Assembly (NCBI GenBank): GCA_030614005.1
Contig: JAUWKS010000002.1
Coordinates: 90,001 to 122,000, forward strand
DNA from: Candidatus Heimdallarchaeota archaeon
Lineage (GTDB): Archaea > Asgardarchaeota > Heimdallarchaeia > JABLTI01
Length of the DNA: 32,000 nt
Direction: 5' to 3'
This document shows positions 4,935 through 32,000 of this stretch, piece after piece. The notes under the pieces are model-generated. The model saw only the letters and a list, made by a program, of their open reading frames with translations. It made no database searches and had not been told where the DNA came from. The translations under genes and the position numbers were made by a program. The first letter of the stretch is position 1, and the number at the start of each line of letters is the position of its first letter.

Positions 4935-6752
4935 CTATTTGTGTGCAAGATTAACAAATATTTTGCTCTTTGTTGTTTTATCTACTCTTACAAAACCATA
5001 TCTCTCAAATTGTACTATGGTATCTGGTTTTAATTTTGCAACACCAGCTTCAGCATAACCAGTTTCTATTTTCAAACTATTTTCATTGAATGTATCATCA
5101 ATGAATAAGACACCAGGTACCTTTACCTCAACTACAACAGTTTGTTTAGCATCTGCTACTACCCATTGAATTTTAGGGCCAGGTTTTAATTCTTCACCAA
5201 AATATTTTCCAATGCAATGGATAGGGAATTTCTTCAGAAAAGGTTTCAATTCTTCACTGATTTTCAGAGAATCAATTTTATTGAGATTAATTTTCTTTTT
5301 AGTTAATTTGACATTAAAAAGATCTTTAAGTCTAAATTCATCATTTACTTTCATATTCTCATAATCAGATTTGTCTATTAAGAAAATATTATTTGGTTTA
5401 ATTTTCCTAAAACCTCTCTTAGCATCATCGGGATGTAAAGGCATTTTGCAGATTCTGTTTTCAGGAGCACCCTCAATATGGATAACAATTGGTTCAGAAA
5501 CGAAGAAATAGCGATCAGAAGCAGCATCGATTATTTTCCTATTTGTAGCTGTTAGGAGGCTCCAATCGATATTGGTTGGTTGAGTAGTCATTCCAACTTC
5601 TTTTATAACTTGTTTAATAGCTTCAGGAACAATACCTCTTTTCTTCATTCCTTTAATTGTTACTAAACGAATATCATCCCACCCCTCTACTTTTCCTTCT
5701 TCTACTAAAGGCTTAATTTTTCTCTTGGAAGCAGGGCTGCCTAAAACATTGAATCGCGCATAGTGGAAAATGTTAGGATGGGGTATTAAACCTAATAATT
5801 CACGTATTTTATTTTGCAATTCTATTCTGGTATCAAATTCAGCACTGCGTCCCACATGTGTTATTCCACACAAATTATCCTCAACTGCAACAGCAAAATC
5901 GTAAAGTGGCCATACTGAATATTTCTCTCCTTGGATACAATGATCTCCCTTTCTAATTGCGAATATAGCTGGGTCTCTCATAACTGCATTTTTATTCTCC
6001 ATATCGCCTCTTACACGTAAGACTATTTCACCTTCATTATAATCTCCTGTGAGCATTTTCTTCCAATCGTTCATTGTATCGGCCGAACTTTTCTTAGAGT
6101 GGTTGCAAGATTTCATTTCTCCACGCATTTCTCTCATTTTATCAACGGAACAGGTGCACGTGTATGCATAATTCTTTTCAATAAGTTCAACTGCTTTTTC
6201 GTAAAAAATCGGCATGTCATTTGAAACAATTACTTCTTTAGTTGGATCTAACCCCAACCATTGCAAATCTTCTCGATGAGCATCCATGTATTCTACTCGC
6301 TCTTGTTTTGGATTTGTATCTTCAAATCGCAAAACAAATGTTCCATGATATTTCTTCGCATAGTAATCGGCAAAGAAAGCAGTATAAGCATGACCTAAAT
6401 GCATCTCACCATTTGGTTCGGGGGCATAACGAGTTACTACTTTGCCATCTACTGCATCTTTTAATGGTGGTAACTCTCTTGATCTTTTTTGAGATTCCTT
6501 TTTTGTAAGTAATTCCGGTGCAATTTTAGAAAGACGTTTTTGTTGCTCTTCAACTGAAAGAGCATTGATTGTTGGAATTATTTCTTCAACGAGATCTCTA
6601 ATTTGTTTGGAAAGCTTTCTTAGTTCAACATGAGTAGCCATTATTTTTTGCATAACCGATTTCTCATTTGCAGAACCATCATGGTGAACAGCATTTTCCA
6701 AACCATATTTAGTAATTAAATGTCGAGCAGTTTCAATATCCTTATTTGACAA
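4935..6752 (-). CDS. gltX: Archaeal glutamyl-tRNA synthetase
   Basis: TRYAPEPNG, HLGH (HIGH), LRFEDTNP, WPLYDF, degenerate KMSKS (PASKR), QFERYGF. Confidence 0.96.
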   Translation of the reverse strand: MSNKDIETARHLITKYGLENAVHHDGSANEKSVMQKIMATHVELRKLSKQIRDLVEEIIPTINALSVEEQQKRLSKIAPELLTKKESQKRSRELPPLKDAVDGKVVTRYAPEPNGEMHLGHAYTAFFADYYAKKYHGTFVLRFEDTNPKQERVEYMDAHREDLQWLGLDPTKEVIVSNDMPIFYEKAVELIEKNYAYTCTCSVDKMREMRGEMKSCNHSKKSSADTMNDWKKMLTGDYNEGEIVLRVRGDMENKNAVMRDPAIFAIRKGDHCIQGEKYSVWPLYDFAVAVEDNLCGITHVGRSAEFDTRIELQNKIRELLGLIPHPNIFHYARFNVLGSPASKRKIKPLVEEGKVEGWDDIRLVTIKGMKKRGIVPEAIKQVIKEVGMTTQPTNIDWSLLTATNRKIIDAASDRYFFVSEPIVIHIEGAPENRICKMPLHPDDAKRGFRKIKPNNIFLIDKSDYENMKVNDEFRLKDLFNVKLTKKKINLNKIDSLKISEELKPFLKKFPIHCIGKYFGEELKPGPKIQWVVADAKQTVVVEVKVPGVLFIDDTFNENSLKIETGYAEAGVAKLKPDTIVQFERYGFVRVDKTTKSKIFVNLAHK

Positions 6753-6832
6753 TGGAAGAACACCTAGGATGAATTTTTGTCTAATTATGAATCGTAAACT
6801 TTGTGTAATCCTTTAAATATTTCCTCTCACTA

Positions 6833-6975
6833 GCTGTTTCTATCACCAAACAATTTCTATTTGTTTTTCTACTCTGCCTATGCTTCAAGCCTTCTCTTCT
6901 TCGAGGTGGTTGCCCTCTCCGAGTTAGCATTATCATGATCAGCGAAGGAATGCATCTCAGCATCCATAGCAGTAT
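6833..6975 (-). ncRNA. Predicted structured RNA overlapping the 3' end of the Cas5-HD gene (copy 1)
   Basis: Shares a 15-nt motif (6950-6964) and a 10-nt motif (6833-6842) with 31787-31909, and has similar predicted stems formed by different sequences. Confidence 0.6.
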
Positions 6976-8017
6976 CAAGCTCTTCTCTTTTACTTGCCGA
7001 TAATGAGATATTTCCATTTTCCATTATTAATCTCCCATCATAATAATCATTTATAGCCAAATTGACCATAATTAAGAGATGGTTTCGTAAAGAATTTTTT
7101 CCATAACGCATTGACTCAACTATTCGGTTCAATTCTTTTGAGTGATAGATATGGGTATATAACTTCAAATGATTGTCTTGACTTTCTTCAAGTTCCTTTT
7201 TTAATTTTTGGAAATTAATTGAACCATTTTGTTTATCATAACGATAAGAAGTCATAGATGGTTTTTTTCGGGTGATAGAAGAAGCAAGTTTATCATAATG
7301 CTTCAAAATTGGTAAGAAAGGATTTGTGCTTTCTTCTCCGTTGTGGTGGTTCTTACAGGCTTCTTTAATCTCCTCATCCTCAATATCTATCCGTTGATAG
7401 ATTTTGCTTTGATGTTTCTCGGTATGAACGAAATCGTGAAGCATGAGAGCAATGAGTAATTGTTGTAATTCCTCGGGATAATCTGCTCGTATACCAGCTC
7501 GAATCTTGAGTTTTTTGTAGGGCCAAGTTTGCTTGCAAGCAGTACATCGTTTGAGTTTAGAAACCTTATCGTAGATAACCGTTGTGTTTTTACATTGTGG
7601 ACATTTCTCAGATAAAGGAACAGTTACAGTAGGAAACGTTTTTGTAAAATGCTTAATTTCACATGATTCCCAAATGACTCTACCATGCCCTTCAGCAGTC
7701 TTTGAACCCAAAAATGATTTCTGGAGAAATGGTTCTATTTTCCTCTTTAATTGTTCTTCTGAAAAACCCACGCAACTGATTTTAACAAATCCTCGGAATC
7801 CTCGTAAGACAGTAGGATACTGATTCTTACCATAGACCAATTTACCTACAGTTGTAAAGAGAGGTTTGTTTTCCTTCTTTGGATCTCCGACCACTTTTAC
7901 CAGACACCCATACTTCCAATATGTTGATTGTGAAACAATAACAGGATTGATTATTCGACCTACTAAGGTAATAATTTTTTTTTGTTTTAGTTGTAAGCTT
8001 TCCATTCGTCTAAACAC
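6878..8017 (-). CDS. Cas5-like RAMP fused to Zn ribbon and Cas10-type HD nuclease domain
   Basis: RAMP Gly loop FLGSKTAEGHGRV; CPQC..CTAC; LMLHDFVH, NHH and YDKLASSITR. Overlaps the cas7-like stop; ATG at 8005 is a plausible start. Confidence 0.72.
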   Translation of the reverse strand: MFRRMESLQLKQKKIITLVGRIINPVIVSQSTYWKYGCLVKVVGDPKKENKPLFTTVGKLVYGKNQYPTVLRGFRGFVKISCVGFSEEQLKRKIEPFLQKSFLGSKTAEGHGRVIWESCEIKHFTKTFPTVTVPLSEKCPQCKNTTVIYDKVSKLKRCTACKQTWPYKKLKIRAGIRADYPEELQQLLIALMLHDFVHTEKHQSKIYQRIDIEDEEIKEACKNHHNGEESTNPFLPILKHYDKLASSITRKKPSMTSYRYDKQNGSINFQKLKKELEESQDNHLKLYTHIYHSKELNRIVESMRYGKNSLRNHLLIMVNLAINDYYDGRLIMENGNISLSASKREELDTAMDAEMHSFADHDNANSERATTSKKRRLEA

Positions 8018-8919
8018 TCCTGTAAGAGATGATTTTGATTCTCAATTTGTTCAACTTCGAGGATAGCGATTTTTCCGTTAATCTCTGTACCTAACTTTCG
8101 TTCTTGGAAAATGCGCTCAAAAGTTATGTCTTTTATTTCTAATCGACCATAACCACTATTTTCTCCTTTGCCTAAATGAGTGATACCAAAAATTCCCTTA
8201 ACTAATAATCCAAGCAACCACTCAGGTAATTCTTTGGTAAATTCTACATAAAATTGAAATTCACCAGAGAAATATTGTTCAGAGAAATCTTGTAATGATT
8301 TGCCGTCTCGTCTTGCAGAGTGACGATTCTCAGTAGAAACATGAACAAAAGAAAGTCCTTTTTGAGCAGTAATTTTGTTTAGTGATTTATCAGTTTGGAT
8401 AAGCACATCACTCCACACTTTGATTAAAGATTTTTCTCCGAGCATACCAAAGAGTCGTCGAATAGCACAGGGACTTTCTCCACACTTTCCCATAAGGTGT
8501 TCATTTTCAAGAAGTGTAGGCTCTCCAGTCCCTTTGAATTGTTCTTTCATAGTTGGAGAACAATAACTTATTCCTTTTCCATGTAGAATATTCATGATAC
8601 TATGTCTAAGAGCTCCTCGTATACCTTTCACTGCTCGAGAGTTTCCATACTCCTCTTTTAGAATTGATACTTGTATTTTCGCATCTTTCTTCTTCTCAGA
8701 AGCTTTGGCTCTTAGCTCTTCTAAATCATCAAGAACTATATCTTTGTTTAGAATGAGAAATTCTTCCAAGTCAGACACTTTAACGTTTGTCTTTCCTTGA
8801 AATTGGTAAGGTATCTCTCCACCCTTCATAAGAAATGAACTTGATCCACTACTACCGTTTAGTGTTTTTGTAAAGTATGCATAGACTCTTATTGTTAACC
8901 GATTAAATGTTTGTGTCAT
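7987..8919 (-). CDS. cas7: Cas7-family RAMP (Csm3/Csf2-like)
   Basis: VKGIRGALRH, C..C Zn motif CGESPCAIRRLFG, EQYFSGEF and Gly loop LGKGENSGYGRLEI. Start placed at ATG 8919 (MTQTF) because 8920-8973 looks like promoter. Confidence 0.82.
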   Translation of the reverse strand: MTQTFNRLTIRVYAYFTKTLNGSSGSSSFLMKGGEIPYQFQGKTNVKVSDLEEFLILNKDIVLDDLEELRAKASEKKKDAKIQVSILKEEYGNSRAVKGIRGALRHSIMNILHGKGISYCSPTMKEQFKGTGEPTLLENEHLMGKCGESPCAIRRLFGMLGEKSLIKVWSDVLIQTDKSLNKITAQKGLSFVHVSTENRHSARRDGKSLQDFSEQYFSGEFQFYVEFTKELPEWLLGLLVKGIFGITHLGKGENSGYGRLEIKDITFERIFQERKLGTEINGKIAILEVEQIENQNHLLQECLDEWKAYN

Positions 8920-8926
8920 GATAACT

Positions 8927-8962
8927 AACCAATTAACCATATAGTCAACCATATATTTAAGC
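8927..8962 (-). promoter_or_regulatory. TATA-like box and direct-repeat operator upstream of cas7-like gene
   Basis: Minus strand reads TTAAATATAT about 35-40 nt upstream of ATG 8919. Plus strand has AACCATATA at 8935 and 8947 and AACCAATTA at 8927. Confidence 0.5.
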
Positions 8963-9011
8963 ATTTTGTACATAAGAAAATTAAAGAATAATCAAAGATA
9001 CAGTTAATTAG

Positions 9012-9200
9012 ATGGTACAAATGGGTGAAGCAAAGAAACCGACTATAAAATTCAAACGAAAAATCGTTGGAAATACGGGTGTAACAAGAATAACAATACC
9101 TAAAGAAATTACAAACGCATTAGACATTCACTTAGGAGAATATTGGGAAGTTTATGCTGAGGATAATGATACGATAATAGTGAAAAGAATCAAAGAATGA
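9012..9200 (+). CDS. AbrB/MazE/SpoVT-family DNA-binding protein
   Basis: RKIVGNTGVTRITIPKEITNALDIHLGEYWEV...IIVKR matches the swapped-hairpin pattern. Confidence 0.85.
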   Translation: MVQMGEAKKPTIKFKRKIVGNTGVTRITIPKEITNALDIHLGEYWEVYAEDNDTIIVKRIKE

Positions 9201-9220
9201 TAATGTTAGGTTCTCAATAG

Positions 9221-9290
9221 TATCCCATGTGGAGCGTCGTGAATCACTGTAAGTGATGAACAGCGACTGCATGAGTCTGCTCCGAGCAAG
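9221..9290. ncRNA. GC-rich structured element downstream of abrB-like gene
   Basis: GGAGC/GCTCC closing stem (9231-9283) with inner hairpins ATCAC-TGTAA-GTGAT and GACT-GCATG-AGTC, in AT-rich intergenic DNA. Confidence 0.4.
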
Positions 9291-9344
9291 AGCATTGGTT
9301 TTCTTCTTTGTAAATATCAGAATTAAAAAAAATCTTTGTTGGCC

Positions 9345-31488: not shown

Positions 31489-31635
31489 GCCCTGATAGTG
31501 TAGTACGGCTCATCATCTTCGGCTGTCAAAGCCAAGAAATGTGCACTGCAAGCTTTTGGCTGCAGAGCCCGATGGACATGAATGTGCAAAGAAAAACGCA
31601 TTCACCATTAACGGGTTCGAATCCCGTTCGGGGCG
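31489..31635 (+). tRNA. tRNA-Asp(GTC) with two BHB introns (31529-31567 and 31578-31610)
   Basis: Acceptor stem GCCCTGA/TCGGGGC, T arm ACGGG-TTCGAAT-CCCGT, anticodon GTC at 31525-31527. Removing both introns gives a 75-nt cloverleaf; no CCA encoded. Confidence 0.93.
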
Positions 31636-31766: not shown

Positions 31767-31909
31767 ATCAGAATCCCATTCGGAGCGCTGTTTCTACTTC
31801 TTAACAGTTTCTTATTACTGTCTTAACTACTAGCTATGTTAACGCTTTTTTCTTTTCGCTACTCATGCTAGTAATTCGATGCATCTCAGCATCTCTGATA
31901 GTGTTAAGA
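31767..31909 (-). ncRNA. Predicted structured RNA, copy 2, with 20-nt variable 3' segment
   Basis: GATGCTGAGATGCAT at 31879-31893 and TAGAAACAGC at 31787-31796, as in copy 1. Confidence 0.6.
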
Positions 31910-32000
31910 TCTTCATCTTCTTCATCTATCGATGTTGAGACATTTCTTACTAGGTATACTTTTTCTCTGCTAATTTTCAACCATTGATTGTAGTAGCTAG
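31834..32000 (-). CDS. 3' end of a probable second Cas5-HD-like paralog (partial; not in the ORF track)
   Basis: My translation SYYNQWLKISREKVYLVRNVSTSIDEEDEDLNTIRDAEMHRITSMSSEKKKALT* aligns with DYYDGRLIMENGNISLSASKREELDTAMDAEMH of 6878-8017. Confidence 0.65.
   Translation of the reverse strand, partial: SYYNQWLKISREKVYLVRNVSTSIDEEDEDLNTIRDAEMHRITSMSSEKKKALT

Follow-up and report, generated by a model that had tools for sequence, protein, structure and literature searches.

In type III CRISPR complexes, the crRNA is held by proteins of the Csm4, Csm3/Cmr1 and Cas10 types, and the array-less RAMP systems known as HRAMP and ARAMP are likewise predicted to be RNA-dependent. The latter are type III-derived modules without a CRISPR array, in which very diverged Cas5 and Cas7 homologues are accompanied by a nuclease (PMC8730458; PMC12669027). 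Most ARAMPs carry a distinct Cas1, the nucleases are mostly of the HNH or PD-(D/E)xK type, and no RNA component is described for ARAMP or HRAMP in these reviews (PMC8730458; PMC12669027). CreA/CreR, scaRNA and the natural single-guide tracrRNA, by comparison, are stand-alone RNAs located beside cas genes, which perform a fixed regulatory task through a Cas effector instead of serving adaptive immunity (PMC8730458).

The present analysis concerns an array-less RAMP locus in a 32,000-nucleotide stretch of DNA from a Candidatus Heimdallarchaeota archaeon (assembly GCA_030614005.1, contig JAUWKS010000002.1, positions 90,001 to 122,000), hereafter the window. An earlier note, made from the sequence, had described a conserved structured RNA overlapping the 3' end of a Cas5-HD-type gene and tied to a RAMP module. 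This description was upheld by covariation, by conservation independent of the reading frame and by the restriction of the RNA to genomes that carry the gene, here called X.

The RAMP module and its genome

Gene X (6878..8017, minus strand; 379 aa) encodes a Csm4/Cas5-like RAMP domain, a Zn ribbon and a Cas10-type HD domain. Its AlphaFold (AF2) model, with a pLDDT of 81.7, consists of two domains linked by the Zn ribbon: residues 9-126 form a RAMP fold nearest to Csm4-type subunits (9g9a_G, Z 8.2 in VIA-align), and residues 177-346 align with the HD region of Csm1/Cas10 (6ifk_A, Csm1 residues 2-353, Z 8.1, 20% identity), the C-terminal domain also aligning with 6mua_A (Z 7.0). Given these structural alignments, the label Cas5-HD originally attached to the gene is a reasonable one. 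The Palm/cyclase part of Cas10 is absent from X, which matches no Pfam family except for a Zn-ribbon-like hit.

Directly upstream of X, in 7/7 paralogous loci, is a Cas7-like RAMP gene (7987..8973, minus strand; 328 aa), which matches the Pfam RAMPs family PF03787 above its cut-off (E 1.4e-7) and, weakly, the PADLOC profiles for Cmr1 (7.6e-6) and Csm3 (2.5e-5). PADLOC returned nothing for X, and a sequence search of the PDB gave no matches for either protein. The genome carries seven such RAMP and X pairs, 35-78% identical to one another, together with tail-only remnants. One of the paralogues of X, p6, enters the window with its 3' end (31834..32000, minus strand) and runs past it, the full ORF being G000:C9:121834-122850. 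No CRISPR array came up when the 3.6-Mb genome was scanned by k-mers, an absence that is uncertain because the assembly is 90% complete, and a Pfam search for Cas1 gave no match in the genome, while controls did match.

Two further features accompany paralogues p1-p3 only. An AbrB/MazE-like gene of 62 aa (9012-9200, plus strand; Pfam MazE_antitoxin E 1.8e-4, below the cut-off) is divergent from the RAMP gene, and beyond it, at the other edge of the cassettes, there is a GC-rich element of ~85 nt (window 9223-9297, plus strand), which contains the word GTGATGA and recurs at G000:C9:65324-65407 and 157813-157896, as well as in one solo copy (C7:20763-20849). Pairing of the tail RNA with this GC-rich element (~9200-9310) was considered and rejected, as the duplex energies lay within the shuffle range.

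Extent and copies of the RNA element

The segment to which the earlier note had drawn attention, 6833-6975 on the minus strand, comprises the last ~32 codons of X and 45 nt past its UAG stop, and is the 3' two-thirds of a structured RNA element of ~175 nt. The proposed span thus fell inside a real element, the limits of which had to be moved: in aligned tails, conservation begins earlier than had been thought, at ATCTCAnnATCGGCA (window 7009), and ends at GGTGATAGAAA (6837). Copy 1 accordingly occupies 6837-7009 on the minus strand (173 nt; covariance model R1, 172.6 bits, E 3.8e-41) and includes the last ~44 codons of X; RNA positions are numbered below from window 7009 as position 1. The 3' edge of homology between paralogues is sharp and falls directly after GGTGAYA.

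A diverged second copy, belonging to paralogue p6, occupies 31791-31941 on the minus strand (R1, 75.6 bits, E 8.2e-17); its Domain I and P8 helix, defined below, are intact, and the P5/P6 portion of Domain II is replaced or missing. The two words reported as identical between the copies were found as described, GATGCTGAGATGCAT at 6950-6964(-) and 31879-31893(-) (2 matches versus 0.00 expected) and TAGAAACAGC at 6833-6842(-) and 31787-31796(-) (2 versus 0.09), and the order of features is that originally given for both copies. As a conserved word, TAGAAACAGC stood in part: TAGAAA(C) is retained across the family, within the consensus GGTGAYAGAAA, and its other bases are not conserved.

Searches with the covariance model, which was built from the eight-helix structure, gave 38 and later 53 copies, gathered from one Heimdallarchaeial family. 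They form a multi-copy family with many fragments; about one third lack an intact X and score as high as those that have one. No Rfam family matches the element: Rfam 15 gave no match at gathering score over the whole window, and a permissive search of 6700-7150 yielded best E-values of 3.4-5.4, far under the family cut-offs. The sequencing runs listed as containing the stretch are DNA metagenomes from cold seep and marine sediment, with no RNA run among them.

No promoter or terminator belonging to the element was identified. A TATA-like GCTATAAATGA ~50 nt upstream was considered as an internal promoter and set aside, being inseparable from coding constraint because the same bases are the conserved AINDY codons of X.

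Secondary structure and compensatory changes

From 5' to 3', the element consists of Domain I, a short linker, Domain II, a terminal hairpin and a GGUGAYA motif. Domain I (6954..7009, minus strand; RNA 1-56) contains P1 (AUCUCA/UGAGAU), P2 (AUC/GAU), P3 (GGCA/UGCU) and the short variable hairpin P4, the codons for ISLSA and DAEMH of X forming the opposing strands of P1-P3. The linker (RNA 57-71), which starts with a conserved GCAU, leads into Domain II (6877..6938, minus strand; RNA 72-133), made up of P5 (GCU..CUC/GAG..GGC), P6 (GAGG/CCUC, with the loop GCAACCA) and P7 ((Y)CAUG/CAU(A)GG), and the UAG stop of the X ORF lies inside the 3' strand of P7 (CAUAGG). The terminal hairpin P8 (6848..6866, minus strand; RNA 144-162) pairs AAACAA with UUGUUU around an A-rich loop and is followed by the 3' motif GGUGAUAGAAA (6837..6847, minus strand; RNA 163-173), the consensus of which, GGWGAYA..., is Shine-Dalgarno-like, and which takes in most of TAGAAACAGC.

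Compensatory changes, for which the earlier note had proposed a homologue-based covariance model, are present in most of the modelled pairs. RNAalifold applied to a plain MAFFT alignment recovered P1-P3 and P6. In the MAFFT alignment of 26 copies, made from sequence only, 84% of cells pair, compared with 32-40% in slid controls, double changes occur in 19 pairs, and 0/500 shuffles match the observed values. Among the 38 copies aligned by the model, 89.3% of cells pair (27-40% in slid controls) and the covariation score is 0.315, versus at most 0.069 in slid controls; this alignment is fitted to the model and so biased towards the structure, a bias of which the MAFFT alignment is free. Compensatory changes affect 29 of the 38 modelled pairs in the same alignment, a simple count that is inflated by kinship among the copies and that concerns helices defined on the same family, with 27 further copies found by the model in agreement.

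Changes on both sides were observed in 5/5 pairs of P7, 6/6 of P5 and 3/4 of P6. P3 occurs as GGCA/UGCU, GGUA/UACU, GACA/UGUU and GAUA/UAUC, its pair types being CG/UA/UG and GC/AU/GU; in P5, CUC/GAG is replaced by CUU/AAG in five copies; and in the p7 clade, P1 has passed from AUCUCA/UGAGAU to GUUUCA/UGAAAC by a double compensatory change. The hairpin with differing stems that had been noticed past the stop codon is real and corresponds to P8, in which the stems differ in nearly every copy yet remain complementary, with double changes in 6/6 pairs. G-U pairs are frequent (in the 26-copy alignment, GU 20 at pair 12/75 and UG 22 at pair 118/156), and it is therefore the sense strand that folds. 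Folded on its own, one sequence gains no stability over its shuffles (z = -0.07), so that thermodynamic stability of a single sequence is uninformative here.

Two of the helices initially proposed did not survive. The enclosing stem CTGCTATG/CATAGGCAG pairs in 71.5% of cells, and its covariation is equalled by 195-339 of 500 shuffles. The local GATGC/GCATY hairpin shows zero double changes; its bases are the 3' strands of P1 and P2, whose partner ATCTCAnnATC lies 50 nt upstream at 6999-7009. As these bases hardly vary, the hairpin may exist as an alternative conformer.

In the 26-copy set, the ACC of the P6 loop covaries with the GGU of the 3' motif, with pairs 135-225 (AU 18, UA 5), 136-224 (CG 21, UA 2) and 137-223 (CG 23), which tentatively suggests a pseudoknot between them. 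Over all 53 copies the support is weaker, 1-2 of 500 shuffles being as good and 61% pairing compared with 52% at slid -1, a weakening that arises once decayed copies enter the set.

Selection on the RNA and on the encoded peptide

The element is selected as a sense-strand RNA, not as protein. Across 38 copies, the stop of the X ORF ranges from element position 21 to 216, and homologues end in ...SKKRRLGT*, continue as ...KEKARNIGSS in the +1 frame, or have an ORF that stops earlier. In the p7 clade, the bases equivalent to DAEMH are read in another frame as KVLKRIY, and P1 is still kept. As had been pointed out from the two copies of the window, the wobble positions of the DAEMH codons are preserved, and they are nearly invariant columns in 26 copies. 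Between orthologous copies the RNA is 85-95% identical, versus 46-82% at third codon positions of the neighbouring gene; in decayed copies linked to S19e, Domain I is 94.6% identical compared with 76-81% for the X remnant, which at the S19e-linked pair is drifting at about the neutral rate. Copies persist after the X gene has decayed.

These data bear directly on the simplest alternative, according to which there is no RNA function and the conservation reflects a C-terminal peptide of X (ISLSA...DAEMH...SKKRRL) together with codon bias. The largest clade does read through in one frame, and peptide motifs recur in it. This explanation is nevertheless effectively excluded by conservation of the same bases in other frames and past stop codons, by the invariant wobble bases and the compensatory double changes (29/38 pairs), by the predicted disorder of the tail peptide (residues 338-375, pLDDT 26-31 in AF2), and by a covarying stem that follows the stop codon in the sister family f6.

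Some solo copies retain a short coding sequence. Those linked to the gene for RFC (L035:2557-2793 and L037:2518-2715) keep a mini-ORF of 65-78 aa that runs into the RNA and has as its first residue precisely the Met of LLMVNLAINDY, a conserved motif of X. Flanked by the genes for TFB and RFC, the mini-ORF shows 80% identity in two species, well over the third-codon identity of 53%.

Distribution, sister family and decay of the element

In the 82 genomes of the class that were searched, the RNA was found only in genomes that also carry X, namely in 10/11 of the other genomes of family f1, with one additional match in G010 and another in G047. The loci are old: their synteny extends across species, and a given site can be occupied in 3-5 genomes.

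In the sister family f6, a shorter X is accompanied by a related RNA, which lies essentially 3' of the stop codon of the gene. An 8-bp stem past the stop codon shows compensatory changes in 7/8 pairs, and its loop has GAGAAGGCUYGGA in common with Domain II. The position of the f6 RNA 3' of the stop, together with the common motif, identifies the RNA as a long-standing companion of the two genes, into which the ORF of family f1 simply grew. Further features were observed in the f6 genomes L043-L051 (e.g. L043:3339-3429), where the covarying stem is followed by a conserved AAAGGUUUCUGCU and a second GC-rich hairpin, AUCCUUAA stands just ahead of the next start codon, and a short hairpin spans the X stop codon.

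The site preceding the S19e gene displays every stage of decay among relatives, down to nothing. The S19e-linked copy is reduced to a ~60-nt relic or gone in 8 related genomes, and the element is therefore dispensable at this site. The exact insertion junction is not definable, since the SD-like GGTTA also occurs in unoccupied S19e sites and the G071 locus is remodelled.

TnpB-like and LAGLIDADG-like genes were seen at several loci. A TnpB/Cas12-like ORF of 546 aa (G000:C9:140933-142573, minus strand), with a C-terminal CxxC...CxxC Zn finger and RuvC-like motifs recognised by eye, adjoins a solo RNA copy (C9:140335-140510) and sits in place of the RAMP gene and X, the RNA tail alone remaining of the module. 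Genes of ~525 aa with two LAGLIDADG-like motifs (LAYLxGxxxGDG and WSGxxDADGS), 32-52% identical to one another, lie divergently upstream of RAMP modules at p4, p5, p6 (two copies) and x8 (G000:C67 ~40710-42281, C122 ~6216-7820, C9 ~124383-125957, ~127789-128832 and ~142745-144373).

Sequences flanking the copies

In many independent loci, the start codon of a co-oriented housekeeping gene is found 1-2 nt past the end of the model. The downstream genes include those for Rpo7 (five genomes), S19e (three), RFC (two), ABCE1 (three), EF-2 (p7 clade) and a PfkB kinase, among others. By its position, the GGWGAYA motif would act as SD for the following gene at most loci; its retention beside tRNA genes and where there is no ORF downstream accords with a structural role. 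Copy 1 is followed by gltX, encoding an archaeal Glu-tRNA synthetase (4935..6752, minus strand, co-oriented; Pfam tRNA-synt_1c E 1.3e-75), after a spacer of 85 nt that has an AGGTG of its own and a promoter-like TTTAAA-type box.

Other copies abut a tRNA gene; in L027, the 3' end of a tRNA-Gly is one base from the element. Copy 2 is followed by a degenerate tRNA 3' fragment and, 155 nt further, by a probable intron-containing tRNA (31489-31635, plus strand; Rfam tRNA 26.3 bits versus a 29-bit cut-off, none by ARAGORN). The fragment (31770-31787; GCGCTCCGAATGGGATTC on the minus strand), a degenerate copy of the 3' end of this probable tRNA, lies right after the RNA copy and is like an old att-type duplication.

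Copies adjoining tRNA 3' ends, the degenerate fragment after copy 2, the sharp 3' boundary and the abundance of fragments in a multi-copy family would all agree with a feature acting at the DNA level: one end of a mobile or integrative element with 5' UTRs and tRNA genes as its targets, consisting of a recombination site or single-stranded DNA hairpins and recognised by a recombinase or homing enzyme. LAGLIDADG-like genes near 4 loci and the TnpB-like ORF at one decayed locus point the same way, but such genes are present at some loci only. Abundant, strand-specific G-U pairs and helices spread across 175 nt within a coding region are not what such a feature would require, neither an inverted or direct terminal repeat nor a matching left end accompanies the copies, and these are ancient and syntenic instead of recently transposed. 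A role of this kind is very improbable.

The sequence beyond TAGAAACAGC had been read in the earlier note as unrelated between the copies and as a guide. Under a model of this kind, an omegaRNA-like scaffold would use its flank to direct the RAMP-HD proteins to matching nucleic acid, for instance an unoccupied allele. The variation of flanks among copies would suit this model, as would a scaffold that overlaps the 3' end of the effector gene and stops where paralogue homology ends, solo copies without an intact gene that resemble non-autonomous elements, and the presence of both empty and occupied S19e sites among relatives. The variable tail, however, is mostly the start codon of the next gene, within 1-2 nt, followed by its coding sequence, or else a tRNA gene, and because the flank is the next gene, a guide would match an essential gene of the cell itself. 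Unlike elements that have moved recently, the copies are old and syntenic; they show no consistent linkage to a transposase, no 3' end or terminator defines the length of a guide, and the GGUGAYA next to it looks structural or SD-acting. Taken together, these points make a flank-encoded guide decidedly unlikely.

A purely cis-acting mRNA element, independent of the RAMP proteins and affecting the stability or processing of the transcript, translational coupling or SD gating for the housekeeping gene, is possible if rather unlikely. Such an element would be expected directly before the SD and start codon of highly expressed genes, as is found at many independent loci; it could be retained after X decays, needs neither the promoter nor the terminator that were not seen, and might act through pairing of the P6 loop with the SD-like motif. 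Nonetheless, wherever the RNA was found, X or a remnant of it was nearby, the same housekeeping genes are devoid of it where the module is absent, and it is present where no ORF follows, as in the tRNA-adjacent copies and in copy 1 with its 85-nt spacer to gltX. A multi-domain fold of 175 nt, with invariant unpaired motifs common to f6, is also more than a coupling hairpin needs.

Discussion

We lean, if only slightly, towards the element being a fixed RNA ligand or cis platform of an array-less RAMP-HD module and not a programmable guide. A fixed ligand, whether it acts in cis or is processed into a stable RNA, is favoured over a guide because no free variable segment follows the element, which sits on the operon transcript at the ribosome-binding site of an essential gene. 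The RNA would be an integral third component of a type III-derived module, next to the Cas7-like RAMP protein and the Cas5-like RAMP::Zn-ribbon::Cas10-type HD protein, and would be made within the module's own transcript. The two RAMP proteins may then assemble on this fixed, non-programmable RNA, which would substitute for the crRNA handle; binding is proposed because homologues of the Csm4 and Csm3 types bind RNA in type III complexes, while linkage to X alone cannot separate an RNA that binds X from one that travels with it. The resulting complex may act in cis on the operon transcript, affecting the way in which the downstream gene is processed, stabilised or translated. Action in cis is suggested by the location of the element right before the SD and start codon and by the apparent pairing of its 3' motif with the P6 loop.

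A stronger version, which we consider unlikely, would have a CRISPR-independent RAMP-HD effector use the RNA as its built-in, non-repeat scaffold, with the RNA working on the transcript that contains it; the outcome would be a guide-free, cis-targeted growth-arrest or addiction switch. The RNA would recruit the Cas7-like and Cas5-HD proteins 5' of the ribosome-binding site of an essential gene (EF-2, Rpo7, RFC, S19e, ABCE1 or GluRS), and the recruited complex could gate or destroy the mRNA of that gene; in the variant put forward in the earlier note, 3' read-through would serve as a guide.

The element probably supplies the RNA partner that had been missing from these array-less modules, or else a control element for them. 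A type III-derived Cas7 and Cas5-HD pair with its own covariation-supported RNA, present in two archaeal families, offers a concrete RNA candidate for array-less systems. If the proteins bind this RNA, a CRISPR effector can outlive the loss of array and adaptation by adopting a fixed, gene-embedded RNA, which would be a class 1 parallel to TnpB and omegaRNA. The placement before core information-processing genes of Asgard archaea may add a new layer of control, or a genetic addiction, over them.

With type III CRISPR systems, the locus shares its proteins, X and its partner being remote homologues of Csm4, Csm3/Cmr1 and the HD domain of Cas10. The crRNA of type III systems comes from a repeat-spacer array, whereas the RNA described here is a single, highly structured unit of 175 nt embedded in a coding region. 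As the one likeness to the 8-nt repeat-derived 5' handle of a crRNA, Domain I of the p7 clade ends in ...GCUGAAAC, compared with the (A/G)UUGAAAC ends of CRISPR repeats in the class, an agreement of 6/8 bases in one clade only. An origin of Domain I from CRISPR repeats was set aside, the k-mer scan having found no array in the 90%-complete genome and only ...TGAAAC being in common between repeats elsewhere in the class and that one clade.

By their published descriptions, on which alone the comparison was made, ARAMP and HRAMP resemble the present module in combining diverged Cas5 and Cas7 homologues with the absence of a CRISPR array, and differ from it in that here a Cas10-type HD domain is fused to the Cas5-like protein and no Cas1 was found. 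CreA/CreR, scaRNA and the natural single-guide tracrRNA keep repeat-like and spacer-like parts and act by complementarity to a promoter or mRNA, and no complementarity or repeat of the CreR/scaRNA type was found in the element. Leaders of ribosomal-protein and translation-factor genes that sequester the SD are likewise placed directly upstream of the SD and start codon, and may share the pairing of an SD motif with an internal loop; the present element, in contrast, belongs to the upstream RAMP module, and the same genes lack it when the module is missing.

The closest likeness in layout is to the omegaRNA/reRNA of TnpB in IS200/IS605 elements, likewise a structured non-coding RNA of 100-250 nt that lies over the 3' end of the effector ORF and extends to the edge of the repeated unit; here, the overlap with the X ORF amounts to 21-216 nt, and the element extends as far as homology between paralogues does. 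Both include copies that lack an intact effector gene. The effector of omegaRNA is a RuvC nuclease (TnpB, IscB or IsrB), whereas here it is a RAMP/HD pair. OmegaRNA has a variable, flank-derived guide; in the present element none is evident, as the flanks do differ but consist of the next gene, from its start codon onwards, or of a tRNA gene. OMEGA systems, finally, belong to transposons with recent, near-identical copies, in contrast to the old, syntenic copies described here, which are associated with neither IS ends nor TnpA.
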